From the IMG/VR virus record IMGVR_UViG_3300022867_000010: DNA of 64,000 bases; one strand, 5' to 3'. Shown here piece by piece: positions 4,275-35,368 of the stretch. How positions within the stretch are numbered: the first letter of the stretch is position 1; each line of letters starts with the position of its first letter. This DNA comes from an uncultured virus (IMG/VR IMGVR_UViG_3300022867_000010) (Duplodnaviria; Heunggongvirae; Uroviricota; Caudoviricetes). The notes beneath the pieces are model-generated. The model was not told the DNA's origin. It did not search any database and saw nothing but the letters and a program-made list of their open reading frames with translations. The translations under genes and the position numbers were made by a program.

Positions 4275-4742
4275 TTACGCAAAAGTTAAAGTTGCCAAAT
4301 AAGCAAAGGCATGATGATATTTTTCAATCCGAGCAAAGTCTTTTCCACGCAAACCTTTCATACGAGTTGGGTCCATGTTATGTTTCAGATCAATTAATTT
4401 TACCATTACCGCGTCCTCATTTACGGCGATTCTATTAATGTATTGATCATAATCTTCGTCTGGTAAATGAGTCATCGACTCAATTCCAGCAATAACTCTG
4501 TCACTAAAACCCGTGCGCTGCAATCTATCAAATGTCCATTCGGGTTTGTCTTCGATCAAGTCATGCATGATGGCGATTTGCATCATTTCAGGGTCGTTTT
4601 TTGTTTTCTTTCCAATGTTGTTCATTACATGAATACAGTGAAGAATATATGGTCGACCGCCTTTATCTAGATCATAAGAGAAAGCAGCAGCAGTAATTTC
4701 GATTGCAATTGAAAGCATTCGGTTTTCGTGATCTGTTTTCAT
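4275..4742 (-). CDS. SpoT/Mesh1-like HD-domain hydrolase
   Basis: GRPYILH...MHDLIED...VKLIDLKHN. Confidence 0.8.
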   Translation of the reverse strand: MKTDHENRMLSIAIEITAAAFSYDLDKGGRPYILHCIHVMNNIGKKTKNDPEMMQIAIMHDLIEDKPEWTFDRLQRTGFSDRVIAGIESMTHLPDEDYDQYINRIAVNEDAVMVKLIDLKHNMDPTRMKGLRGKDFARIEKYHHAFAYLATLTFA

Positions 4743-4773
4743 AATATACACTCTTCAATTAATTTATACAACC

Positions 4774-4826: not shown

Positions 4827-4884
4827 TTGACAAGTGAATAGAAGTGTGTTATAATAACTAAGTCGTGCCGGGGCAGGTTGGTAT
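4827..4884 (+). promoter_or_regulatory. Antisense sigma70 promoter with conserved G-rich leader, copy 1
   Basis: TTGACA 4827, TGnTATAAT 4850; 40 bp match 28003-28042 with one mismatch. Confidence 0.75.
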
Positions 4885-4887
4885 GTA

Positions 4888-5820
4888 CTAATCGAACTTC
4901 CTTGCCATAAGGGTATCAATTGGTATATTTGCAGATATCCAACCCCACAATTGAGTTTTAATATCAATCATTTTGTTTACGGGTTTGGATGGCATTTTGA
5001 GGGTCAGGTATTTAAAATCTTTTATTGTACCAAATATATCACCTTTCTGCTTCTTGCCACCGAAAGGTTTATCTAATCCTGTACGACCACGCGCTTGGGT
5101 ACCACGAATAGAGTCTGTAGGTTTATCACCATTTGATCTATAATCTTTTCCATCAGAAGTCTTGAAGAATATAGTATTCTTTTGGTTGTTTAATACAACG
5201 TGAATGCCGCCATTCAGACCAACGGGTATCTTATTTTTATCTACAATATCCCACATAGTCTTGGCCGCGCCTTCATGAGTTTCGAACATAATATCTGAAG
5301 GTACTACTCTTTCTCTGGATGCATTCTGTTTAATCGCTATCTTATAATCTGTTAATATCCAAACCAAATGTACATTGTTAGGATTATATCCCGCATCATA
5401 CATTCTAGGTAAAGTTTTATCAATTTGCTTTAGATCTTTTAGAGTAACGTCAAACATGATGTTTGGCAATATTTCTTTATTCTGCATGGCGCCAATCATA
5501 TTAGACAGAGTTTTATCTTTGATTCCTTTTTCGTCTACAAACTTGTGTAGTTTAAAAACGTCTTCAGGTTTCTTTAAATTGAGGCCACGTATCTCTGGAT
5601 ATTTCTTTTTTAACTTATCGATTTTAAGGAACGTCATTTTCCATTCATCAACATCACGAACTTTATAATCCTGAGAGTTAATAAAATTCTTTGCGGCAAA
5701 CCCTTTACCAGAGTTATGAACTAACATATTTTGCTTTGTGACATGATAGTTGTGATTGCCCGATATGCTCAGATCGTGAACTACTTCCTTAGTTATTTCA
5801 CTTCTTCTTATTAATTTCAT
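4888..5820 (-). CDS. Split-intein C-fragment (36 aa) fused to the C-terminal part of a P-loop kinase
   Basis: VHDLSISGNHNY...LVHN|SGKG; later IMFDVT and NASRERVVP. Confidence 0.85.
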   Translation of the reverse strand: MKLIRRSEITKEVVHDLSISGNHNYHVTKQNMLVHNSGKGFAAKNFINSQDYKVRDVDEWKMTFLKIDKLKKKYPEIRGLNLKKPEDVFKLHKFVDEKGIKDKTLSNMIGAMQNKEILPNIMFDVTLKDLKQIDKTLPRMYDAGYNPNNVHLVWILTDYKIAIKQNASRERVVPSDIMFETHEGAAKTMWDIVDKNKIPVGLNGGIHVVLNNQKNTIFFKTSDGKDYRSNGDKPTDSIRGTQARGRTGLDKPFGGKKQKGDIFGTIKDFKYLTLKMPSKPVNKMIDIKTQLWGWISANIPIDTLMARKFD

Positions 5821-5933
5821 CTGTTTTTTCCAATTTCTCGGTAAGTTCGGTAAGGGTCAATTCTGGAAAATGACCTCGGTCTTTTAAATATTCAGCCTTT
5901 TCTAAAAATCTTAACCATTTTTTGTGTCGTCAT

Positions 5934-6134
5934 TCATACTCGATGGGCCTTGCCTGTGTCTATAACAACATTTCCCAATCGTATATCTTCCACCATCATT
6001 GCTTTATCTATATTTAGTTCCATTTCCGTCATATATTTATATTTATATTGCGGAAATTGTGATTCACATGCTAAACGTTTGTCTAAATTTATTCCAAAAT
6101 CAACTAAACCTTTTGGCAGGTGGTGTTGGTATTG
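5934..6134 (-). pseudogene. Possible decayed GIY-YIG/T5orf172-like endonuclease remnant between the intein halves
   Basis: Startless frame FGINLDKRL...FPQYKYKYMTEMELNIDKAMMVE; position matches fractured-gene loci. Confidence 0.35.
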
Positions 6135-6140
6135 CGTTTA

Positions 6141-6521
6141 TTATGCTATTGGTATATCCTTTGCTTGTACCCATTCACCTTCAATAAAGAACTCGTGATT
6201 TGCAGTGCACTTAACTATTTCGCCATTATCGAACTCTAATTCTAACATAGGCTCTGGATTAGCTTCGAAAGAGTGGGTGTCTTCAACTTCTTTAAGTTCT
6301 TCGTTTCCTGTATCTTCATTTGTAGTCCAAACCAAATCACCTTCTTTTATATCTGAAATTGGTGTATGGCCCGATTCAGTATGTACCAGAGTATCTGCCG
6401 AGAAACAACCGGCGCCACCGGCAAGTATAACAATCTGACCGTATCGAGCGCCTTTGTTGATTAGCAGAAGTTTTTCTTGGAGTTCTTGTTGCTCCACTAT
6501 ATGATTTTTAAAGGATAACAT
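6141..6521 (-). CDS. P-loop kinase N-extein (38 aa) fused to split-intein N-fragment (88 aa)
   Basis: IVILAGGAG|CFSADTLV; block B CTANHEF; WVQAKDI then stop. Confidence 0.9.
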   Translation of the reverse strand: MLSFKNHIVEQQELQEKLLLINKGARYGQIVILAGGAGCFSADTLVHTESGHTPISDIKEGDLVWTTNEDTGNEELKEVEDTHSFEANPEPMLELEFDNGEIVKCTANHEFFIEGEWVQAKDIPIA

Positions 6522-6522
6522 A

Positions 6523-7005
6523 TTAATTTACATACATGTTTAGTTCGAATGTTTTGCTTTTGCTTTCTCTGTTGTAGATTTGTATGTGTAGTTTTTTCTT
6601 TGATTCCTTGCCATTTTTATCAACAAGAGTTAAGGTGTATCTATTTGTCTTTCCACGGCCTGGCTTTGCAGGACCTGTTGCAACATCATTCCATCGAGAT
6701 TCATCTTCGATAGCAAAGCCGGTTTTCTTTAATTCCTTTTCGACTTCTGTAAATGCATTGCTCATAGAGTCATGATATATCTCATAGGAAGTCTTGGCTT
6801 CTTTCAAAAGATCTTTTGCATCAACACTCATAGAACCGTTTTTGACACTTACATTAATTGTGCCGTTAGGGTTAACCATATCTACAACACCTTTCAGTGT
6901 TTTTGGAGACAAAGAGTCGTATTTATTTGCATTTTTTACAGTTACAACATCACCCTTGCTAAATTTGGACTTTGTTGCTTCGTCAAACTCTTTAAATGAT
7001 TTCAT
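6523..7005 (-). CDS. Hypothetical protein with capsid-targeting-like N-terminus
   Basis: Starts MKSFKEFDEA; TATAAATA at 7047-7040. Confidence 0.65.
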   Translation of the reverse strand: MKSFKEFDEATKSKFSKGDVVTVKNANKYDSLSPKTLKGVVDMVNPNGTINVSVKNGSMSVDAKDLLKEAKTSYEIYHDSMSNAFTEVEKELKKTGFAIEDESRWNDVATGPAKPGRGKTNRYTLTLVDKNGKESKKKLHIQIYNRESKSKTFELNMYVN

Positions 7006-7206
7006 GATCTCTCTGATAATTTGTAAGTTAGGATAATATTATTTATAACAAAAAGGCGCCGCGCCCTTAATTTATTATGTACCACAGCGACCAGCAGGCC
7101 ACGACTTGAGACCTTTTTGGCCGTGGTTCCCGATATGATCAGGTCCTTTTTGACAATTTGACCGCCAGTGCGGTATAACTTTGCTTCTGCTTTTATAATT
7201 ATTCAT

Positions 7207-8260: not shown

Positions 8261-8737
8261 TCATTCAGGATCAATGGAACTTAACTCCTCTTTAAGCACT
8301 TCGATCCAAAATTCATATTTTGCTTGACGCGTCAAGTCAGCATTTTCAATTCTTTTCATTCGCCTTAAATCCATATTATGAGTCATATCACAAATCTTGA
8401 CTCGCATTGCGATAGGATTTAACATAACTCGATCCATGTAGACATTATAATCTTCATAGATAGGTGATTTAATTTTGGTTAGTGCTACAACAGCATCAAC
8501 AACTTTTCTGTTGAATCCTAACTGACCTAGTCGAACAGCCGTCATATCGGTATCTTCAACAATGTCGTGCAATAATGCAGCCATAATGTCATTGTCTGTG
8601 ATTAGTAAAGGATAAGTTTTTTGAAGTATCTTTGCAACTTCTCTTGGGTGATTGATGTATATCTCACCGCCTTTATCAAATTGGCCTTCGTGCATTATTG
8701 CTGCAATTTGATCTGCATATTCTATAGTATTAATCAT
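8261..8737 (-). CDS. SpoT/Mesh1-like HD-domain hydrolase
   Basis: GEIYINHP...AALLHDIVEDT...VKICDMTHN; start reassigned to MINTIEY. Confidence 0.85.
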   Translation of the reverse strand: MINTIEYADQIAAIMHEGQFDKGGEIYINHPREVAKILQKTYPLLITDNDIMAALLHDIVEDTDMTAVRLGQLGFNRKVVDAVVALTKIKSPIYEDYNVYMDRVMLNPIAMRVKICDMTHNMDLRRMKRIENADLTRQAKYEFWIEVLKEELSSIDPE

Positions 8738-8768
8738 ATAATTTTTTTTTCTCAATTTCCATACATGT

Positions 8769-8843
8769 ATTATACCATGGTTGGGGTATAATGTCAATAA
8801 CTAATTTTAGTTTAGTTATAATTAGTTGTTATATCGATATAAC
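8769..8843 (-). promoter_or_regulatory. sigma70 promoter with upstream palindrome
   Basis: TTGACA 8797-8792, TATAAT 8774-8769, GTTATATCGATATAAC 8828-8843. Confidence 0.85.
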
Positions 8844-9859: not shown

Positions 9860-9924
9860 ATTATACCATGGTTCGGGTATAATGTCAACAACTTTCTTAT
9901 AACTTGTAGTTATAACCTTATAAC
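9860..9924 (-). promoter_or_regulatory. sigma70 promoter with upstream palindrome
   Basis: TTGACA 9888-9883; GTTATAacctTATAAC 9909-9924. Confidence 0.8.
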
Positions 9925-10436
9925 ATTTCTCTAGCTTGAGCGAGCAAAACAGAATCTGCCTTGGTCAATACATCCAGAAGCAATGCTTTTTCTTTCAAAT
10001 AAACCTTTGCAAACTTGGGATCGTGTTCGATAATAGAAACACTGTTGTCTATCAAATCTGCGACCTTGATGTTATGTACATCAGCACTTGCGGCACCTAA
10101 TCTTTCTCGGTCCATCTTCTTTCTAGCCGCCCTGTTAGGACTCACACCTTCGATAAATGGGTCATCAGACAATGCTTTGATCATATCATGTACCCTAGTA
10201 CCAAATTCTTCTTGAATCATATCCAAGGTGACCTCAGTATCTTCAACTGTGTCGTGCAAGAAAGCAGCAGCGATTACATGTTCATCCGTGATACCTACCG
10301 AACGTAATGTCAGCGCTACATTAACCGGATGAAAGATATAAGGCTCTCCTGTGTATTTTCTTTTATGATATATGTCGCCGTGATATTTCCACGCGAACCA
10401 ATATGCTTTTTCTGTTAGTGCAGTAGTAGTTGTCAT
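9918..10436 (-). CDS. SpoT/Mesh1-like HD-domain hydrolase
   Basis: RKYTGEPYIFHP...AAFLHDTVEDT...IKVADLIDN. Confidence 0.9.
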   Translation of the reverse strand: MTTTTALTEKAYWFAWKYHGDIYHKRKYTGEPYIFHPVNVALTLRSVGITDEHVIAAAFLHDTVEDTEVTLDMIQEEFGTRVHDMIKALSDDPFIEGVSPNRAARKKMDRERLGAASADVHNIKVADLIDNSVSIIEHDPKFAKVYLKEKALLLDVLTKADSVLLAQAREML

Positions 10437-23900: not shown

Positions 23901-24926
23901 TCAGCCCTCGCATGCTTCACAAGAGCCACTTGATGCTTTTACCCCCGATTCAGATCGTATATAATACAAAGATTTTATGAAAGGATCTTTGAATGCCATT
24001 TCATGTATTTTTGAAATTACTTCTTCTTTCTCGTCAGCACTAAAAAATAAGTTAATAGATTGTGCCTGATCGATATGTCTTTGACGCGCCGATGCCAATC
24101 GAATAATCGATTCTTGGTTGATTTCAAACGCCGTCTTGAAAACTTCTTTCTGGTGATCATCAAGCCATTCAACATCCTGAACTGAACCGTTATCATCTAT
24201 AATAGCATTTATAGTCTTCGGATTAAAAACACCTTTCTCTTTCATAACTGCTATGAGTACCGGATTGATTCTGTCAACTTCGCCAGCACTAGTTCTTTGC
24301 ACGTATGCATTTTTGTATATAGGTTCAATTCCTTGAGATACAGAGCCACATAAAATTGCCGAGGACAAATTAGGGGCAATTGCCATGCGGTGAGTGTTAC
24401 GCAAACCGTAACCAACGCACCATTCCGGTTCACCTAGGGTTTCTGCTAACCAACGGCTAGCACGCTCTGAAGCTGTTGCCAGTTGTTTAAAAATTGAGTT
24501 GTTGATCATATGCGCTTCCATACTTTCAAAAGCAATGTTTTTCTGTTGTAAATAAGTATGAAAACCTAATGTACCTAAACCTAACGCTCTACTCTTTTCT
24601 GTGAAGCGAACTGCCTTTTCTAATCCACGAATCTTTTTGCCTTCTTGGATAAATTCTTCGGCCACGCAGTCAAGAAAAACGGTTGCGTCAAATATAACTT
24701 CGTCTGGGTCTTTCATATTATCATATTGAGATAGGTTGATTGACGAAAGAACACAAGTAAAAGTAACATCATCAAAGCCTTCTCCTGTATCACTAGAAGT
24801 TGCATTCAATGTAATTTCAGTACAATTGTGTACTAATATATCATTTGCAAAGAAGTTATGATTATTCTCTACTGTAAGATCAAACACCGCTTCTTTATTA
24901 TCTAAATATTCTATTGTTAAACTCAT
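23901..24926 (-). CDS. nrdA: Split-intein C-fragment (34 aa) fused to the C-terminal half of class I ribonucleotide reductase alpha
   Basis: VFDLTVENNHNFFANDILVHN|CTEI; LGLG, AIAP, SQGIEP, SLYY and terminal CEACEG. Confidence 0.92.
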   Translation of the reverse strand: MSLTIEYLDNKEAVFDLTVENNHNFFANDILVHNCTEITLNATSSDTGEGFDDVTFTCVLSSINLSQYDNMKDPDEVIFDATVFLDCVAEEFIQEGKKIRGLEKAVRFTEKSRALGLGTLGFHTYLQQKNIAFESMEAHMINNSIFKQLATASERASRWLAETLGEPEWCVGYGLRNTHRMAIAPNLSSAILCGSVSQGIEPIYKNAYVQRTSAGEVDRINPVLIAVMKEKGVFNPKTINAIIDDNGSVQDVEWLDDHQKEVFKTAFEINQESIIRLASARQRHIDQAQSINLFFSADEKEEVISKIHEMAFKDPFIKSLYYIRSESGVKASSGSCEACEG

Positions 24927-25681
24927 ATTTTCTTATTCCTATGATTATTGCCGTCAAGCAAGGTTAAATCTGTTATTTTAAATGTTTCTATTAGCAACGT
25001 TTGTATATTTTCGTTCCATACCGGTTCTCTATATTTTCCTTTCAAACTCTTAGGTAGCGGTTGACCATAGACTTCGACAAAGTATCTTTTAGTCATGGCC
25101 ATACTCCATCTTCCATATTTTTTAAATATTATTTTACAGGCCTCGAGTATATCTTCATTTGATATACCAGTAAATCTTGGGTTTTTTTCACCAGTGACAG
25201 AAGCACCAGTTTTTAATTTCCATTCATCCGATCTTTTCATTCCTACATGAAAAAACACCCATTTACCAGATAGTACATGTGGATGATCTTTTTTAACTCG
25301 ACCAATTCGAACTCCAGTAATAGAATCTTTTACAATTAAAGTTCCGGTGTGTCGTTTCGAAACTTCTGCTGCAATGATCTTGCGAGCTGCAGAATACGCT
25401 CTAGATGATAATCTTTTTCCCTTTGACACAACTCTACCCATATTGATCAAAGCCTGGTTTGCTTTATATCTGCCCTGCCCTGTTGCTAATTTAGCGAGCA
25501 ATACATGAGCAATCCAATGTTCTTTTTGTGTCAGAAGTATCATATTAAAACTTTCATCTGTACCGCCAAATGATCTTGGTAGTATGTGATGATTTTCGTA
25601 TTTAAAATCGCGATCTTTTTTAGATCGACCTAGGTTTCGTCTGCTTTCTATTAAATTATTGTACAAGTTCAGATAGTTCAT
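24923..25681 (-). mobile_element. Free-standing HNH homing endonuclease splitting nrdA
   Basis: YENHHILPRSFGGTD..N...LT..EH..AH..L; basic C-terminal segment. Confidence 0.85.
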
Positions 25682-25685
25682 TTTT

Positions 25686-25720
25686 AATCCTGTTTAGTAC
25701 TATTTATACTAAACAGGATT
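25686..25720 (-). promoter_or_regulatory. Late promoter inside a 14-bp hairpin covering the HNH ribosome-binding site
   Basis: AATCCTGTTTAGTA/TACTAAACAGGATT flanking TATAAATA 25708-25701. Confidence 0.75.
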
Positions 25721-25750
25721 TCCAAACATAAAGATGTTAATGAATAGAGA

Positions 25751-26905
25751 TTACCCTATTACAAGTTCGTCATCTTCAAGCAATTCTTTCGCCATAACAT
25801 ATCCACGATTTTTTGTAAATATTTTATGATCTGGAGTACATTTAATAGATTTTCCAGTTTCATCATCCGTGATTTTCATAATAGTAGCGTTAGGGTTTGT
25901 TTCCGCACCATCAGTAATTGTTTCCCAATTGCCCAATTTATTCTCAACATCATACGACCAGATTTTCCAATCATCGAGATTATTGTTATAATGATTTTCA
26001 ATGAAATGTTGCAAGGTACAAGATTTAACACCAGAAACATCTCCTTTAACTGTTATAATAGTATCTCCAGTCATACATAAATTTGATGCATATACTTGCA
26101 GACCGCGATCCTTGTACATTGCTGGGCTTTGTCTGTTTACTTTATCAACAAAGAAGAAATATCCCTTACCTGTCAACATTTTAATCTTCAATGCTTTCTG
26201 ATATCGGGCAACTGCATCTTCCTCACCTTTGTCTAAACGTTCGATAAAATCGTCACTTATATTCCAACCAACATTCACATCGTCAGGCATTGTTTCTACG
26301 TGCTGACACATCTCCCAAAAATCACCGCTTTCGATAGGAATATATCCTGCCCATGAACCCCGTCTAGTACTTCCTTGAGAAACGTCTCGAGACATCTGCA
26401 CAAAGTCCTTGAATACAGGTACAACACCACTTGCGGCGCCACCACCTTTGATATGCGTACCTCGTTCACGAATAGCGCCAAGATACGAACTTGTACCAAA
26501 ACCGTTCTTTGAAAGGAGAGCACCTTCTTTCTGGGCTTCATAGAAATTATACACCGAATCACCAACGTAACTTCCAGAACACGATACAGGCATACCACGA
26601 GTCGTTCCCATATTTGCCATTACTGGTGTACTTGGAGCAAGAAAACCATTCCACATCAAATCGAAGAATTTAGTATTCCATTCTTCGCTCGATTCGCCCA
26701 TGTGCTTCGAGGCGGTTTTTGCGATACGTTCAAACGTCGACCGAACATCCGGTTCAGATTCCGTTTGATATTTTTCCTTAAACATTTGCCACCCAGGAGT
26801 GGTGTAGTAATCGGGAATTCTGCCAGACGCCTGTAACTTCTTACGTTCCCTGCCCAGCTCTTTATAAATTGATACGTGTTCTTCTACCATTATACTTGTC
26901 CCCAT
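25751..26905 (-). CDS. nrdA: Ribonucleotide reductase alpha N-terminal half fused to split-intein N-fragment (108 aa)
   Basis: PSTPV, PVSC, SQGSTRRG, ASNL|CMTGD; block B CTPDHKIF. Confidence 0.92.
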   Translation of the reverse strand: MGTSIMVEEHVSIYKELGRERKKLQASGRIPDYYTTPGWQMFKEKYQTESEPDVRSTFERIAKTASKHMGESSEEWNTKFFDLMWNGFLAPSTPVMANMGTTRGMPVSCSGSYVGDSVYNFYEAQKEGALLSKNGFGTSSYLGAIRERGTHIKGGGAASGVVPVFKDFVQMSRDVSQGSTRRGSWAGYIPIESGDFWEMCQHVETMPDDVNVGWNISDDFIERLDKGEEDAVARYQKALKIKMLTGKGYFFFVDKVNRQSPAMYKDRGLQVYASNLCMTGDTIITVKGDVSGVKSCTLQHFIENHYNNNLDDWKIWSYDVENKLGNWETITDGAETNPNATIMKITDDETGKSIKCTPDHKIFTKNRGYVMAKELLEDDELVIG

Positions 26906-31131: not shown

Positions 31132-31950
31132 TTATTTGTTTATAATTGCAACGTCTGTTAACCATTTTCGGATTTTCTTGCCATTACTTTCTACGATCAC
31201 GTAGTTAGAACCGGTCACGATTATCAGGCCGACTTGATCCGTATTATCAAGAAGCACGTAGTCTCCTTTCTCAAACAAGTTGCCTTCTATGTAGCTTTCT
31301 CTTGTTTCAGAAACTGATCTTAATTGAATATGCTTTCGGAAAGTATAGGATTCTTTAAGTCCCATGCCTGAACGAACAGCATTGAATAATAATTTACCGT
31401 CTTTGAACGCCTTTGGCAGTCCTTTTTGAAACATTTCAAAATCGTTTGCTTCAGCGGCAGCACGCATCTTAGAGGCGGACATTCCACTTACTTCGTCGCT
31501 GTCAGGATCTCTATCACCAGCAGAAACAACATTCAGTGTCTCGAAGTTATAAAATCCGTGCCGACCTTTTACGCCATTGTACTTATTTATGATTTTATCG
31601 AACTCTGCTACTCTGTCAGAACCAACAACCATGGTTGCCTTAATGTATCCTTTATCAAACAAGAACACCATAACATCGAAGACATTTCGTATTTTCTTAT
31701 CTAAAATGATGTTTCGTGCATGTTTTGGAAACATCTTCCTCATGAACTTTACTTTGGACACGTAGTCCAAAGGATTCTTCTTGGGATCATTAGAAGAAGA
31801 CGCAAATACGAAATAATCCGCTTTACTATTTACAGTTGACAACTTTTTAATAAGTTTTTCGTGCCCAGTTGTAGGTGGGTTAAACCTGCCAAAAGTAAAG
31901 ACTGCTTCGTTCGTCTCTTCTGTGATGTATTGACTAAATGATTTAATCAT
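31132..31950 (-). CDS. HIGH-family nucleotidyltransferase (cytidylyltransferase/NMNAT-like)
   Basis: FGRFNPPTTGH, VVGSDR and MSASKMR motifs; starts MIKSFSQYITEE. Confidence 0.85.
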   Translation of the reverse strand: MIKSFSQYITEETNEAVFTFGRFNPPTTGHEKLIKKLSTVNSKADYFVFASSSNDPKKNPLDYVSKVKFMRKMFPKHARNIILDKKIRNVFDVMVFLFDKGYIKATMVVGSDRVAEFDKIINKYNGVKGRHGFYNFETLNVVSAGDRDPDSDEVSGMSASKMRAAAEANDFEMFQKGLPKAFKDGKLLFNAVRSGMGLKESYTFRKHIQLRSVSETRESYIEGNLFEKGDYVLLDNTDQVGLIIVTGSNYVIVESNGKKIRKWLTDVAIINK

Positions 31951-32347
31951 CTGACAAATCTTCCTTTTTTGTACTACGTTTGCCGCGTTCGGCTTGTTTT
32001 ATTTTCGGCAATAGTTTTTTAGACAATCTACTTATAGCAGCGCTCTTCTTGGCAACCTTCTTTTCTAAGGCACCTCGTGCAGCAAAGGAAAGATCACCCT
32101 TCGACTTATCTTTTAAAATCTTTTTCTCTATTTCTTTTCGAGCATGTTTATTAGCTCGACTTTTCAGTTTTTCAGGAGACGCTATACGATTTGCGGCACG
32201 TTTCTTACCCGCTTTAATTTTGGACTTATTCTTTCTCATTGCGGCCCGCATCTTCATCCGCCCTCGAGCATCTAATGCTTCGTCGAAGTCATCTTCATCT
32301 TCGTCGAAGTCATCTTCATTGTTTACATATTCCTTGAAGGATAACAT
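31943..32347 (-). CDS. Highly basic protein with acidic leader
   Basis: MLSFKEYVNNE, acidic segment, then K/R-rich body. Confidence 0.65.
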   Translation of the reverse strand: MLSFKEYVNNEDDFDEDEDDFDEALDARGRMKMRAAMRKNKSKIKAGKKRAANRIASPEKLKSRANKHARKEIEKKILKDKSKGDLSFAARGALEKKVAKKSAAISRLSKKLLPKIKQAERGKRSTKKEDLSDD

Positions 32348-32433
32348 ATTTGTACCTGTTAGTTATTTGCGCGCTGCAGCGCTTTGTGCCATTGTTGGCA
32401 TATCCATGTTCTTTCTCCGAGCACGCCAGCCTT

Positions 32434-32829
32434 TTATTTATTTGATTCTTCTACAGTGCCTATTTTATCTTGCACCCAAGCAGAGGTGCCGAATTCAGCA
32501 CCTCTCTTTTTTGCCAACGCGATTGCCGCTACTTTAGTCATGTTAGGTTGTATAACTTTATTGTCTTTGTATACAGTGTATTTGTCACCCACTTTGCGAG
32601 CTTCGTCAAGATCAAAAGCAGCATCAACCGCTTTATTACCATGTCTATCACGAAGAATTTGTGAAATTGCACCTCCCTTATCAAAGCCTTGTACGTTTAT
32701 AACTTTATTAGTAGATTGTATAATACCCCGAAGCTCCTTGACAGATTTCTTTTTCAGATCGGCATATTCTTTTTTTACTTTCTCAATACGCCCTTTGTTT
32801 TCAAGAATAAATTCTTTATATGTTTTCAT
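32434..32829 (-). CDS. Putative internal head protein
   Basis: MKTYKEFILE closely matches the T4 internal-protein targeting peptide MKTYQEFIAE. Confidence 0.65.
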   Translation of the reverse strand: MKTYKEFILENKGRIEKVKKEYADLKKKSVKELRGIIQSTNKVINVQGFDKGGAISQILRDRHGNKAVDAAFDLDEARKVGDKYTVYKDNKVIQPNMTKVAAIALAKKRGAEFGTSAWVQDKIGTVEESNK

Positions 32830-32840
32830 TTCTGTACCTA

Positions 32841-34091
32841 TTATCTTGTGGGAGAATCCCATCCTTTGAGTATTTCGTCGCTAAAATTTGCGTAGGAGAA
32901 ACTTAACTGATCGACCAACTTAAAAGCATTACCTTTTGCGTGATCAATCGCTACAAAACCTTCATGACCAGTAACTTCAAATCCATTCTTCGTTCTTAGG
33001 AACGTGGACATATTGTCAATCTTATTCAACTTTCCAACTATGATCAATTTTACATCACCTAATAGATTTTGCAATTCAAAAAGATCGATAAGTTGTTTTT
33101 TGTTACTATCAGAGAAAAACTTCATAAAGTCGTCACGGGCAATGATCTTTCGTTCTTTACCTGCATCCGATTTTAATTTATCTATCTCTTTCTGATATTT
33201 ATTATTTATATATGCAATTAGACCAGTAACATGCTTTTTAGGGTCGGAAGACATTGTTCCGCCGCGGATAAAACTGTTTGCATATGTCTCAATGGTCTGT
33301 GCAAGATTAGGGGTAGTTTCTATTTGTTTTAAAGTTTTGGATGATACTTTCTGAAACAACTTGCCGGCCTGACTCAACTTCTTGTCAATCGAATTAGTTT
33401 CTTTCTTGGTTAACGATACACTGCCACTCAGATTCTTAACGTTAGCATCATCGAACCAAACGTTTTTCGTTTGAGTGAATTGTTTTGCATCAAGTTTAAA
33501 GGATGCATTAAGGTCAGCAAATGTACTACCTTTGTATTCCGTATGAAGCACGATGCCCATCTTGGACCCTTGAATTTTCTTTGCAAGTTTAGAATCTGTT
33601 GGTACTGCATATAAAATTGTGTTTGGGTGAAATGTCAGATAATTCTCGCCATCTATCTTTTGTGTTTTCAAGTCGCTAGCGCTATACATCATATCGCCCT
33701 GAAAGATTCCTTTTGGATTTAACTTTGGAAGTTCTTTGAGCGCAATTTTCATTTTTACATTTAAGTCAGCACTTGATATGTCGGCATCAATGTCAGCGTC
33801 AGTCATATAAAACTTAGGAGTTTTTGCAAATATACCTTTCTTTGCCACGAAGAATTTTCCAGCATCAGGTTCGCCGCTTGGTACTTGACCAAAGAATATG
33901 GCAGGGGCGCCGTCCCATTTCATCGTCACATCTATTTTAGATGTAGATGTTCCAGCCAAGGTGTTTCTTAAATCTCGCAGAGATTCTATTGCTTGTCTTG
34001 TACCTTTAACACCTTTATACAGAACTAGATTCTGTATGTGCTGCATGTGAGCATTAACTTCTTCGGTTACATAAGATTTGAAGGATATCAT
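32841..34091 (-). CDS. Conserved phage protein with ligase-like nucleotidyltransferase motifs
   Basis: KWDG, FQGD, HEGFV and FKLV resemble ligase motifs I, III, IV and V; starts MISFKSYVTEE. Confidence 0.6.
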   Translation of the reverse strand: MISFKSYVTEEVNAHMQHIQNLVLYKGVKGTRQAIESLRDLRNTLAGTSTSKIDVTMKWDGAPAIFFGQVPSGEPDAGKFFVAKKGIFAKTPKFYMTDADIDADISSADLNVKMKIALKELPKLNPKGIFQGDMMYSASDLKTQKIDGENYLTFHPNTILYAVPTDSKLAKKIQGSKMGIVLHTEYKGSTFADLNASFKLDAKQFTQTKNVWFDDANVKNLSGSVSLTKKETNSIDKKLSQAGKLFQKVSSKTLKQIETTPNLAQTIETYANSFIRGGTMSSDPKKHVTGLIAYINNKYQKEIDKLKSDAGKERKIIARDDFMKFFSDSNKKQLIDLFELQNLLGDVKLIIVGKLNKIDNMSTFLRTKNGFEVTGHEGFVAIDHAKGNAFKLVDQLSFSYANFSDEILKGWDSPTR

Positions 34092-35368
34092 GAGGCCTTC
34101 ACATAAGCAGCAGACATTTCGGATTCAGAGGCAGCGTAACCAATCATAGCCGTTATAACTTTTGTTTTCATTGTTTTTGATAATTTATTAAATTGAAAAA
34201 GAAGTTGAGCTCCCATTATCTTGGACATAAAAAATGTTGCGTCCTTTTCGTCTACCTTCTTTTTAAAGTCGGAATACTTGATAGAAGGTTCCCCCAATGT
34301 TGTGTAATAATCGTAAAACTTGCGAAGATTATCTTCTGTTTTTATGCCCAAGGTTTTTTGTGGCATAAATAATGATCGGCCGATATTTTTCATCAAAACG
34401 GCAACAGGTCCGCCTGAAATCTTTCCTTGATTGGCAAACTTACCTTTTATCTCACCTTGCCATGTTGACCCAAATGTTCGGAATTGAATTTCACCACCGT
34501 CATATTGAATGTATACATCGTTAGATTGAAAAAATGATCTCTTTCCTGTCGTGAACTTGGTAAATTGGTATTCTTTTCGTTTCTCCGTAAAGTTCTTCTT
34601 TTCTAAAGAAACCTTACCTTGTGCCTGCTTCAAAGAAACACCAACAAGAATGCCTTCATTTCCTGCATTCAAAATTAAGTTGTTTAATTCTAATATACTT
34701 TGAGTACCTTCAATATCGAGCGCTTCTGCTTTACTTGTTGCCATCCAAATATCAGCAGGGGTCCATTTGTTTAAGTTAGTAAAGAGTTTTTCAATTTTGT
34801 TCAGCTTTTTGAATTGATTGTCTATTCGTGCAATAAAAGCAGAACCTCTATGAAATATATATTTCTTACCTTTATATAAACTTTCTTTGTGAAGTTTCTC
34901 CGCGGTAAGTATACATGAATCTCTCCAAACATCGTCAAGATTATCTACGATATTATTAATTGGCTCGTCAACGTTGACACTATTAGCTGCACCATGTAGG
35001 GATTCGGCACTATATTTGCCGCCTTTATACCATCTGTCTGCTAAATACAGACATTGCGCGGATTCTGTTAATTTTGTAACAGCTGCACCTGCGCCACTAC
35101 CACCGCCTGCTGTTTTTGCGACAATAGTTATCTTGTCGGATAGTTGAGTTTCGCCTACTGAAGATTTGTTCGATATGGGTTGAAAATTGCCGCCAAGTTG
35201 TGTTGCAATGTCTTTCAGTGCTTTAACTCGTTCGGAGTTACTGTCTACCATTATTGCAATAATTCGGCCCTGTACTTTCTTAATTTTAGAATAACCTATA
35301 TCGTTTAATAGTGTTATTACTGAGTCGGTTACAGCATACTCAATTAAGAAGCTTTTAAAACTTTGCAT
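34088..35368 (-). CDS. Putative PD-(D/E)XK-fold nuclease
   Basis: TE...KWTPADIW...VGVSLKQ; starts MQSFKSFLIE; TATAAATA at 35415-35408. Confidence 0.5.
   Translation of the reverse strand: MQSFKSFLIEYAVTDSVITLLNDIGYSKIKKVQGRIIAIMVDSNSERVKALKDIATQLGGNFQPISNKSSVGETQLSDKITIVAKTAGGGSGAGAAVTKLTESAQCLYLADRWYKGGKYSAESLHGAANSVNVDEPINNIVDNLDDVWRDSCILTAEKLHKESLYKGKKYIFHRGSAFIARIDNQFKKLNKIEKLFTNLNKWTPADIWMATSKAEALDIEGTQSILELNNLILNAGNEGILVGVSLKQAQGKVSLEKKNFTEKRKEYQFTKFTTGKRSFFQSNDVYIQYDGGEIQFRTFGSTWQGEIKGKFANQGKISGGPVAVLMKNIGRSLFMPQKTLGIKTEDNLRKFYDYYTTLGEPSIKYSDFKKKVDEKDATFFMSKIMGAQLLFQFNKLSKTMKTKVITAMIGYAASESEMSAAYVKAS

Follow-up and report, generated by a model that had tools for sequence, protein, structure and literature searches.

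A probable trans-splicing split intein in the P-loop of a zeta-toxin-like kinase gene of an uncultured phage

Introduction

In a 64,000-nt stretch of DNA (the window) from an uncultured virus, IMG/VR record IMGVR_UViG_3300022867_000010, two neighbouring ORFs encode the two parts of a P-loop protein, and the break lies inside the ATP-binding loop. The question is whether the two products are joined by a split intein, or whether the gene is broken. The complete virus record comprises 198,785 bp with terminal repeats. It encodes gp23 and a gp21-type protease, and is therefore T4-like. All sequencing runs listed as containing the stretch (24/24) are labelled as salt lake metagenome, and 11 of them are possibly its source.

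Split inteins of phage origin are known from fractured genes. According to the accessible part of Dassa 2009 (PMC2677866), these comprise the host N-part with IntN, a free-standing endonuclease and IntC with the host C-part, all on one strand; IntN has 88–105 aa, IntC has 33–54 aa, and the endonuclease end overlaps the IntC start. The hosts listed there are gp41, IMPDH, DnaE, NrdA, NrdJ, ligase, terminase and one unknown protein, and the endonucleases are only GIY-YIG or Vsr-like. The gp41-7 locus, which lacks an endonuclease, was counted there as the same arrangement.

Results and Discussion

Anatomy of the split kinase locus

The locus (6521..4888, minus strand) consists of two ORFs in different frames, separated by a 320-bp gap (Table 1). 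Re-derivation of the ORFs returned the anatomy of the original prediction, i.e. 38+88 aa and 36+274 aa. The length of the spacer was also as described, but two open stretches without a start codon had been overlooked, one of them an endonuclease remnant.

Table 1. Positions of the features of the kinase locus and of the NrdA gene in the window
Feature	Position	Strand	Description
Upstream gene	6523..7047	-	160 aa; N-terminal motif as in the kinase; TATAAATA 42 nt 5' of the gene
N-extein	6408..6521	-	38 aa; capsid-targeting-like N-terminus, first beta-strand, first Walker A half (…GGAG)
IntN	6141..6407	-	88 aa + stop; Cys1, block B TxxH (TANH), net charge -18
Endonuclease remnant	5934..6137	-	67 codons; PD-(D/E)XK-type C-terminal end; profile match
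Paired TATAAATA copies, overlapping	6034..6047	-	within the remnant; 227 and 221 nt 5' of the C-half start
Open stretch	5798..5929	-	43 codons, without upstream ATG; overlaps the C-half start
IntC	5713..5820	-	36 aa; block F Asp and His, terminal His-Asn, net charge +2
C-extein	4888..5712	-	274 aa from Ser+1 (SGKG); zeta-toxin-like kinase body
Fractured NrdA gene	23901..26905	-	N-half with 108-aa IntN, intact 252-aa HNH-type homing endonuclease, C-half with 34-aa IntC

Splits seen in a single contig can be errors, as the near-identical loci L027 and L268 demonstrate: the former has a frameshift inside IntN, whereas the latter encodes a contiguous 125-aa intein. The split kinase could likewise be a contiguous intein-endonuclease gene broken by assembly errors. 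The proposed check of the spacer against sequencing data gave the same sequence in contigs of runs X12 (5565–7100) and X14 (5311–6625), which bridge it with 0 differences and 0 gaps. L002 is identical to the window over 5858 nt (100%), spacer included, and a 400-nt stretch spanning the spacer is also exact in L023. Among four runs compared (possibly from one campaign), no joint skipping the spacer and no variant letters at the kinase locus were found. These identical spacers, and the record of the N-half protein on 18 contigs, make an artefact so improbable that it can be set aside.

The interrupted host protein

The search for uninterrupted homologues returned the exact junction (GGAG/SGKG) in L003 and L004, whose proteins of 312 and 313 aa match the predicted 312-aa spliced product and are 86% and 83% identical to the C-extein. 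The intein-free sister P0001 exceeded the Pfam cut-off for PF06414 (Zeta_toxin; 37.8 vs 22.3 bits), as did the intein-free P0002, both with a zeta-like fold; the C-half of the window alone remained below it. The structure model of P0001 (pLDDT 78) was closest to PezT, zeta and AvrRxo1, although the similarity was modest (TM 0.41–0.43, 11–14% identity), and a PDB sequence search with P0001 gave nothing meaningful. Its neighbours in the protein atlas are viral clusters with zeta-type names. The Pfam match, model neighbours and atlas names identify the host as a phage P-loop kinase-like protein, as originally predicted. It is like zeta toxin, PezT and AvrRxo1, which are P-loop kinases (PF06414), in the Pfam score and model match of P0001, but differs from them in its low identity and its membership of a phage family, PHROG 5268, to which no function is assigned. 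Invariant residues of the family are the Walker A Lys, an Asp after strand 2 and two lid Arg, all of which we take to have roles in zeta-type kinases. A small-molecule kinase activity is quite probable.

The C-extein matched 214 GenBank phage records, all below 60% identity, and one of these matches is annotated with P-loop and zeta toxin domains. Klebsiella phage Miro (locus CPT_Miro233) is one cultured phage that carries the family. Eight matches were found in cellular genome contigs, of which seven are real family members; the neighbours in L261 and L264, the two contigs judged, looked by eye like phage DNA.

The intein halves

The two halves together carry the features of a class 1 intein (Cys1, block B TxxH, block F Asp/His, terminal His-Asn and Ser+1), precisely inserted into a conserved host motif for which intein-free alleles exist. 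When both halves were compared with intein profiles, only the N-half gave a clear result. It exceeded the curated cut-off of the NCBIfam model intein_Nterm (TIGR01445; 30.8 bits vs 24.5) and that of Pfam PT-HINT (E 8e-9). The C-half matched Pfam Intein_splicing weakly (E 0.078; 4.8e-4 within the genome) and did not match the NCBIfam C-terminal intein model TIGR01443, which its relative P0068 passes. It nevertheless ends with HN before Ser and can be aligned with eight other split C-halves of the same site; its block F has His where most relatives have Tyr or Phe.

A complex prediction of the two halves reached 0.45, compared with 0.01 for the best control, with a partner pLDDT of at least 58 and agreement between runs in at least 79% of contacts. 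The mark applied was reached by 51 of 78 solved pairs and 2 of 108 mismatched pairs, and in the range up to 0.60 it held only 5 solved pairs and all 4 passing mismatches. The prediction thus lends weak support to association of the halves, and may stem from their resemblance to split inteins of solved structure. For the L014 intein (120 aa), AlphaFold modelling from the single sequence gave no usable fold (pLDDT 46).

In class 1 splicing, an acyl shift at Cys1 is followed by transfer to Ser+1 and Asn cyclisation. At the kinase locus, the two halves would be made as separate proteins, probably off one late transcript. The acidic 88-aa IntN would associate with the 36-aa IntC, and class 1 trans-splicing would then join Gly38 to Ser39, which would restore the P-loop (GGAGSGKG) in a zeta-toxin-like kinase of 312 aa. 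With the ATP-binding loop itself interrupted, kinase activity should require splicing and not mere binding.

The halves could also bind and self-cleave without ligation, in the manner of a bacterial intein-like Hint domain, which would leave the kinase as a non-covalent pair. The top Pfam match (PT-HINT) and the top PDB sequence match (a bacterial intein-like domain) agree with such behaviour. However, precise insertion into a conserved P-loop, Cys1, TxxH, HN, Ser+1 and the existence of empty alleles are features of inteins, and a divided P-loop that carries a bulky domain would be unlikely to bind ATP. Absence of ligation is therefore very improbable, and splicing of the two halves is highly likely.

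A resemblance to the fast Gp41-1 intein had been pointed out. It holds for the size (an 88-aa IntN, and an IntC of 36 vs 37 aa), Cys1, Ser+1 and the canonical split position, but not for the host or the lineage: the kinase intein ends in VHN and not THN, its block B is TANH and not SEEH, and Gp41-1 was absent among the 13 PDB matches of the window N-half at E<=5. For a contiguous relative, Gp41-1 was the best PDB match (E 7.6e-7). The kinase IntN is strongly acidic, whereas the N-strand of gp41-1 is reported as positive in the accessible part of PMC2677866. As the N-half did not retrieve Gp41-1 and the end is VHN, the speed of splicing is not inferable, and the suggestion that the kinase intein is fast like Gp41-1 was rejected for want of supporting evidence.

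An endonuclease remnant in the spacer

In the DNA of related loci of the same site, an endonuclease ORF lies between the intein halves. It is intact in L020 (383 aa) and L176 (about 385 aa), and frameshifted into two frames in L015. A PDF…EIK motif is invariant in this family, and these PD-(D/E)XK-type proteins are putative nucleases. The L015 piece exceeded the Pfam cut-off for Tn7_TnsA-like_N (27.8 vs 26.5 bits), but a Pfam nuclease family was matched by only this one of the three same-site endonucleases. That of L020 matched only PHROG 945, 'endonuclease' (E 1.2e-4), and a scan for further endonuclease loci gave a single weak new locus, L255.

In the window, the spacer is 320 bp long compared with 1144–1208 bp in intact relatives. 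The first of its open stretches, in the IntN frame past two TAA stops, scored 19.2 bits against an HMM of the three same-site endonucleases, while the best of 2000 shuffles scored 7.7. It was the top piece among the 2834 six-frame pieces of the genome (E 1.3e-4), and a 6-sequence HMM gave a similar match. The match begins past the PD and ExK motifs, which the remnant lacks, and the remnant is therefore dead. The second stretch runs into the start of the C-half, with the frame relation that the endonuclease of L015 has there; no homologue of it was found in Pfam, PHROGs, phage records, the endonuclease HMM, the protein atlas or five related records. The endonuclease has thus decayed in the window while both intein halves are whole, and the decayed gene of a putative homing endonuclease places the locus in the known fractured-gene arrangement. 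Most likely, a cassette of IntN, free-standing PD-(D/E)XK endonuclease and IntC homed into an empty allele, and about 850 bp of the endonuclease gene was later deleted, leaving its 3' end.

Expression signals and selection

The motif TATAAATA, which we take to be the T4 late-promoter consensus, was the commonest of 56 letter permutations between genes (32 vs a mean of 9.7). The L015, L020 and NrdA cassettes each have a copy of it at their 5' end, and L176 does not. The upstream 160-aa gene is probably the start of a late transcript; its homologue is adjacent to the kinase gene in L003 and one ORF further upstream in L004. The paired copies within the remnant could, as a guess, drive the C-half. 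No RNA dataset was listed for the stretch, which says nothing about its expression.

Perfect sigma-70 promoters lie back-to-back behind the kinase gene at 4827–4855 (plus) and 4802–4774 (minus), the plus copy reading antisense into the 3' end of the kinase gene. Of the 39 perfect sigma-70 sites in the genome, the plus strand carries only 3. The antisense promoter is found in L003 and not in L004.

Loss of the endonuclease could also have broken expression of the C-half, so that the kinase, being non-essential, is turning into a pseudogene. Degeneration of the spacer is evident, and the cassette's own 5' late promoter, found in L015 and L020, is gone in the window. Judged by eye, the ribosome-binding signals are weak, with no clear Shine-Dalgarno sequence for the C-half. 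However, both ORFs are intact, and every column that is invariant in an alignment of 57 sequences is conserved in the exteins (40 of 40). Private amino-acid changes are fewest on the window branch (10, compared with 17 and 27 in two empty relatives), and none of the four runs lists variant letters. Comparison of the split kinase with L003 gave a dN of 0.097 and a dS of about 1.9 (dN/dS about 0.05), and a recent relaxation would be invisible since dS is near saturation. Decay is accordingly given little weight. The 40 invariant residues, together with the nesting among empty alleles shown below, favour a live fractured gene in which the kinase is trans-spliced, the cassette having been gained by homing and its endonuclease then partly deleted; this reading is very probable.

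Alleles at the same insertion site

Among the best 120 of 658 homologues, 110 were uninterrupted, five were split C-halves and five had a contiguous intein at the same residue. Five further N-halves end within 7 residues of the same motif. These ten split halves (five C, five N) come from protein searches, as protein records without DNA context; complete split pairs known from DNA number four. The best 150 of 1152 family representatives comprised 135 empty alleles, nine contiguous ones, one split allele and five fragments or variants. An N-junction DNA pattern, whose listed matches are mostly unrelated, led to a kinase profile match in 26 of 173 loci screened.

By eye, the nine contiguous alleles represent four lineages, with inteins of 316–345 aa among them, and the site thus hosts three lineages besides that of the window. 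LAGLIDADG-type domains were found in both long inteins scanned (2/2). The contiguous alleles of the window lineage have 119–127 aa; three of these natural inteins (P0068, L014:2650-3009 and L054) have 119–120 aa and are shorter than fused Gp41-1 (88+37). L050 retains the C-half start motif within its fused intein, and the L014 intein closely resembles a direct, linker-free fusion of the L020 halves, which suggests that contiguous alleles arose by re-fusion after loss of the endonuclease, the direction being inferred. In the IntN tree, split and contiguous forms interleave. Since the P-loop has been invaded repeatedly, these alleles also suggest that the kinase matters to the phage.

History of the insertion

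In the extein tree, the window kinase groups with the empty P0001 (98/94), within a clade that includes the empty P0002 (100/100). In a quick tree of 91 hand-selected rows (65 empty, nine split, nine contiguous and eight with other inteins), the split alleles are scattered over the kinase family. A gain of the intein in the window lineage by homing is probable, as one gain is simpler than repeated precise loss. A search for a co-conversion tract beside the insertion, where synonymous identity is noisy, found none.

An old split intein could instead have been inherited vertically in the clade and lost precisely by the empty relatives, with the same splicing. Across alleles, intein identity rises with extein identity (Spearman 0.57, 78 non-independent pairs), a pattern compatible both with long co-descent and with homing between relatives. 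In P0122, a close relative, the N-extein is nearly identical and the split IntN has 62% identity, and the endonuclease of the window is already dead. Vertical inheritance is nonetheless unlikely: P0001 and P0002 alone would require two independent precise losses and the whole family many more, the split label needed 8 changes for 9 rows in the quick tree, at least 5 of them forced by starred branches, and a single clade of seven intein-bearing kinases was rejected (p-AU 0.038, for a set picked after the first tree).

Among the 80 best-ranked of 280 loci, the closest sister inteins are those in terminase P-loops, directly before S[GS]KT of large terminases, and like those of the kinase site are both split and contiguous. 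The terminase identity was confirmed in five of six hosts scanned. A single branch (96/98) divides the inteins of the kinase site from those of the terminase site, indicating that the lineage moved between similar Walker A sites; as the tree has a midpoint root only, the jump may have run in either direction. From L013:3001 onward, a full-length intein lies in the Walker A motif (GVGK/T, by eye) of another kinase-like P-loop protein, at an unrelated site.

A possible head-targeting motif

The N-extein had been described as starting with a capsid-targeting-like peptide; for this motif, we used the letters that we assume for the CTS. The resulting loose, self-defined motif does recur in the genome, being found in 9 of 250 called genes, eight of them in two clusters, compared with 5 of 1239 internal Met. 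Of the nine genes, four have TATAAATA within 150 nt, compared with 32 of 250 genes overall. The motif was present in only 80 of 210 members of the kinase family.

Starts of the form M-x-S/T-F-K…E cluster at 455–1073, 6141–7005 and 31132–35368 (minus strand) and include those of DUF6267 and a nucleotidyltransferase-like protein. The genes in these clusters are candidate internal head proteins.

A CTS is described for the T4 internal head proteins IPII and IPIII in the accessible part of PMC9958956. The statistics of the kinase motif fit a head-targeting signal, and packaging of the kinase into the phage head is conceivable, though somewhat short of an even chance. If the kinase is packaged and injected, trans-splicing must precede head assembly.

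Other split inteins

The window contains a second fractured gene, NrdA (Table 1), and the phage therefore needs two split inteins that do not cross. The NrdA halves have 21 of 88 and 14 of 36 residues in common with those of the kinase intein. The NrdA locus has an HNH-type endonuclease, whereas the accessible part of Dassa 2009 lists only GIY-YIG and Vsr-like genes.

Many split inteins were seen in viral contigs L178–L252, in a terminase P-loop and, by eye, in RecA/UvsX-like, helicase, NrdJ, IMPDH and ligase-like hosts. Several genes there carry two inteins, e.g. in L179, L223 and L246. Near the kinase locus are HD-domain-like paralogues at 4275–4751 (weak HD_4 match), 8261–8797 and 9918–10436 (minus strand; the latter two by eye).

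Comparison with known fractured genes

As far as the accessible part of Dassa 2009 goes, the kinase locus is like fractured genes in that its halves are separate ORFs of one strand and the split lies at the position of the endonuclease. Between the halves, the window has a catalytically empty remnant, L020 and L176 have intact endonucleases and L015 has a frameshifted one. The locus differs from fractured genes in that the partly deleted endonuclease is PD-(D/E)XK/TnsA-like (PDF…EIK) and not GIY-YIG or Vsr-like, and in that the host is a zeta-toxin-like kinase and not an enzyme of DNA synthesis or repair. Unlike the loci described there, empty, split and contiguous alleles all occur at one site.

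The original prediction had considered both host and site as possibly new. An intein in this kinase was not found in the openly accessible literature searched. A kinase host is absent from the fractured-gene list in the accessible part of PMC2677866, and neither 'kinase' nor 'zeta' occurs in the main text of PMC4760082 or in the accessible part of bioRxiv 10.1101/2025.01.02.630785. By eye, the IntC of the unknown-protein host (PMC2677866, supplement Fig. S1) is not of the window lineage. The type of site, on the other hand, is unsurprising, since inteins prefer P-loops as insertion sites according to the accessible part of PMC4760082. The split intein is thus real, of a known kind and most likely functional; as far as the literature searched goes, the host class is new, the endonuclease is of a different type, and the allele series is unusually complete.

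Implications

A more far-reaching reading is rather doubtful as a whole. In it, the split intein and the free-standing PD-(D/E)XK endonuclease would be one homing unit among phage kinase genes, which would end either by partial deletion with the split kept, as in the window, or by clean deletion with re-fused halves, giving cis-inteins of 119–124 aa (fused Gp41-1 has 125 aa). The host would be a head-packaged, injected zeta-like kinase that is trans-spliced before head assembly. If this is true, a natural split intein gates a virion-delivered enzyme and not a replication enzyme.

Natural split inteins gain a host class outside DNA metabolism, and fractured genes gain a third endonuclease type. 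One site holds nearly every stage of gene breaking: empty alleles, split with endonuclease, split with decaying endonuclease, contiguous mini-inteins and unrelated LAGLIDADG inteins. This allele series makes split-cassette homing and re-fusion directly testable. For protein engineering, the site offers a panel of compact Ser+1 split pairs and very short cis-inteins.
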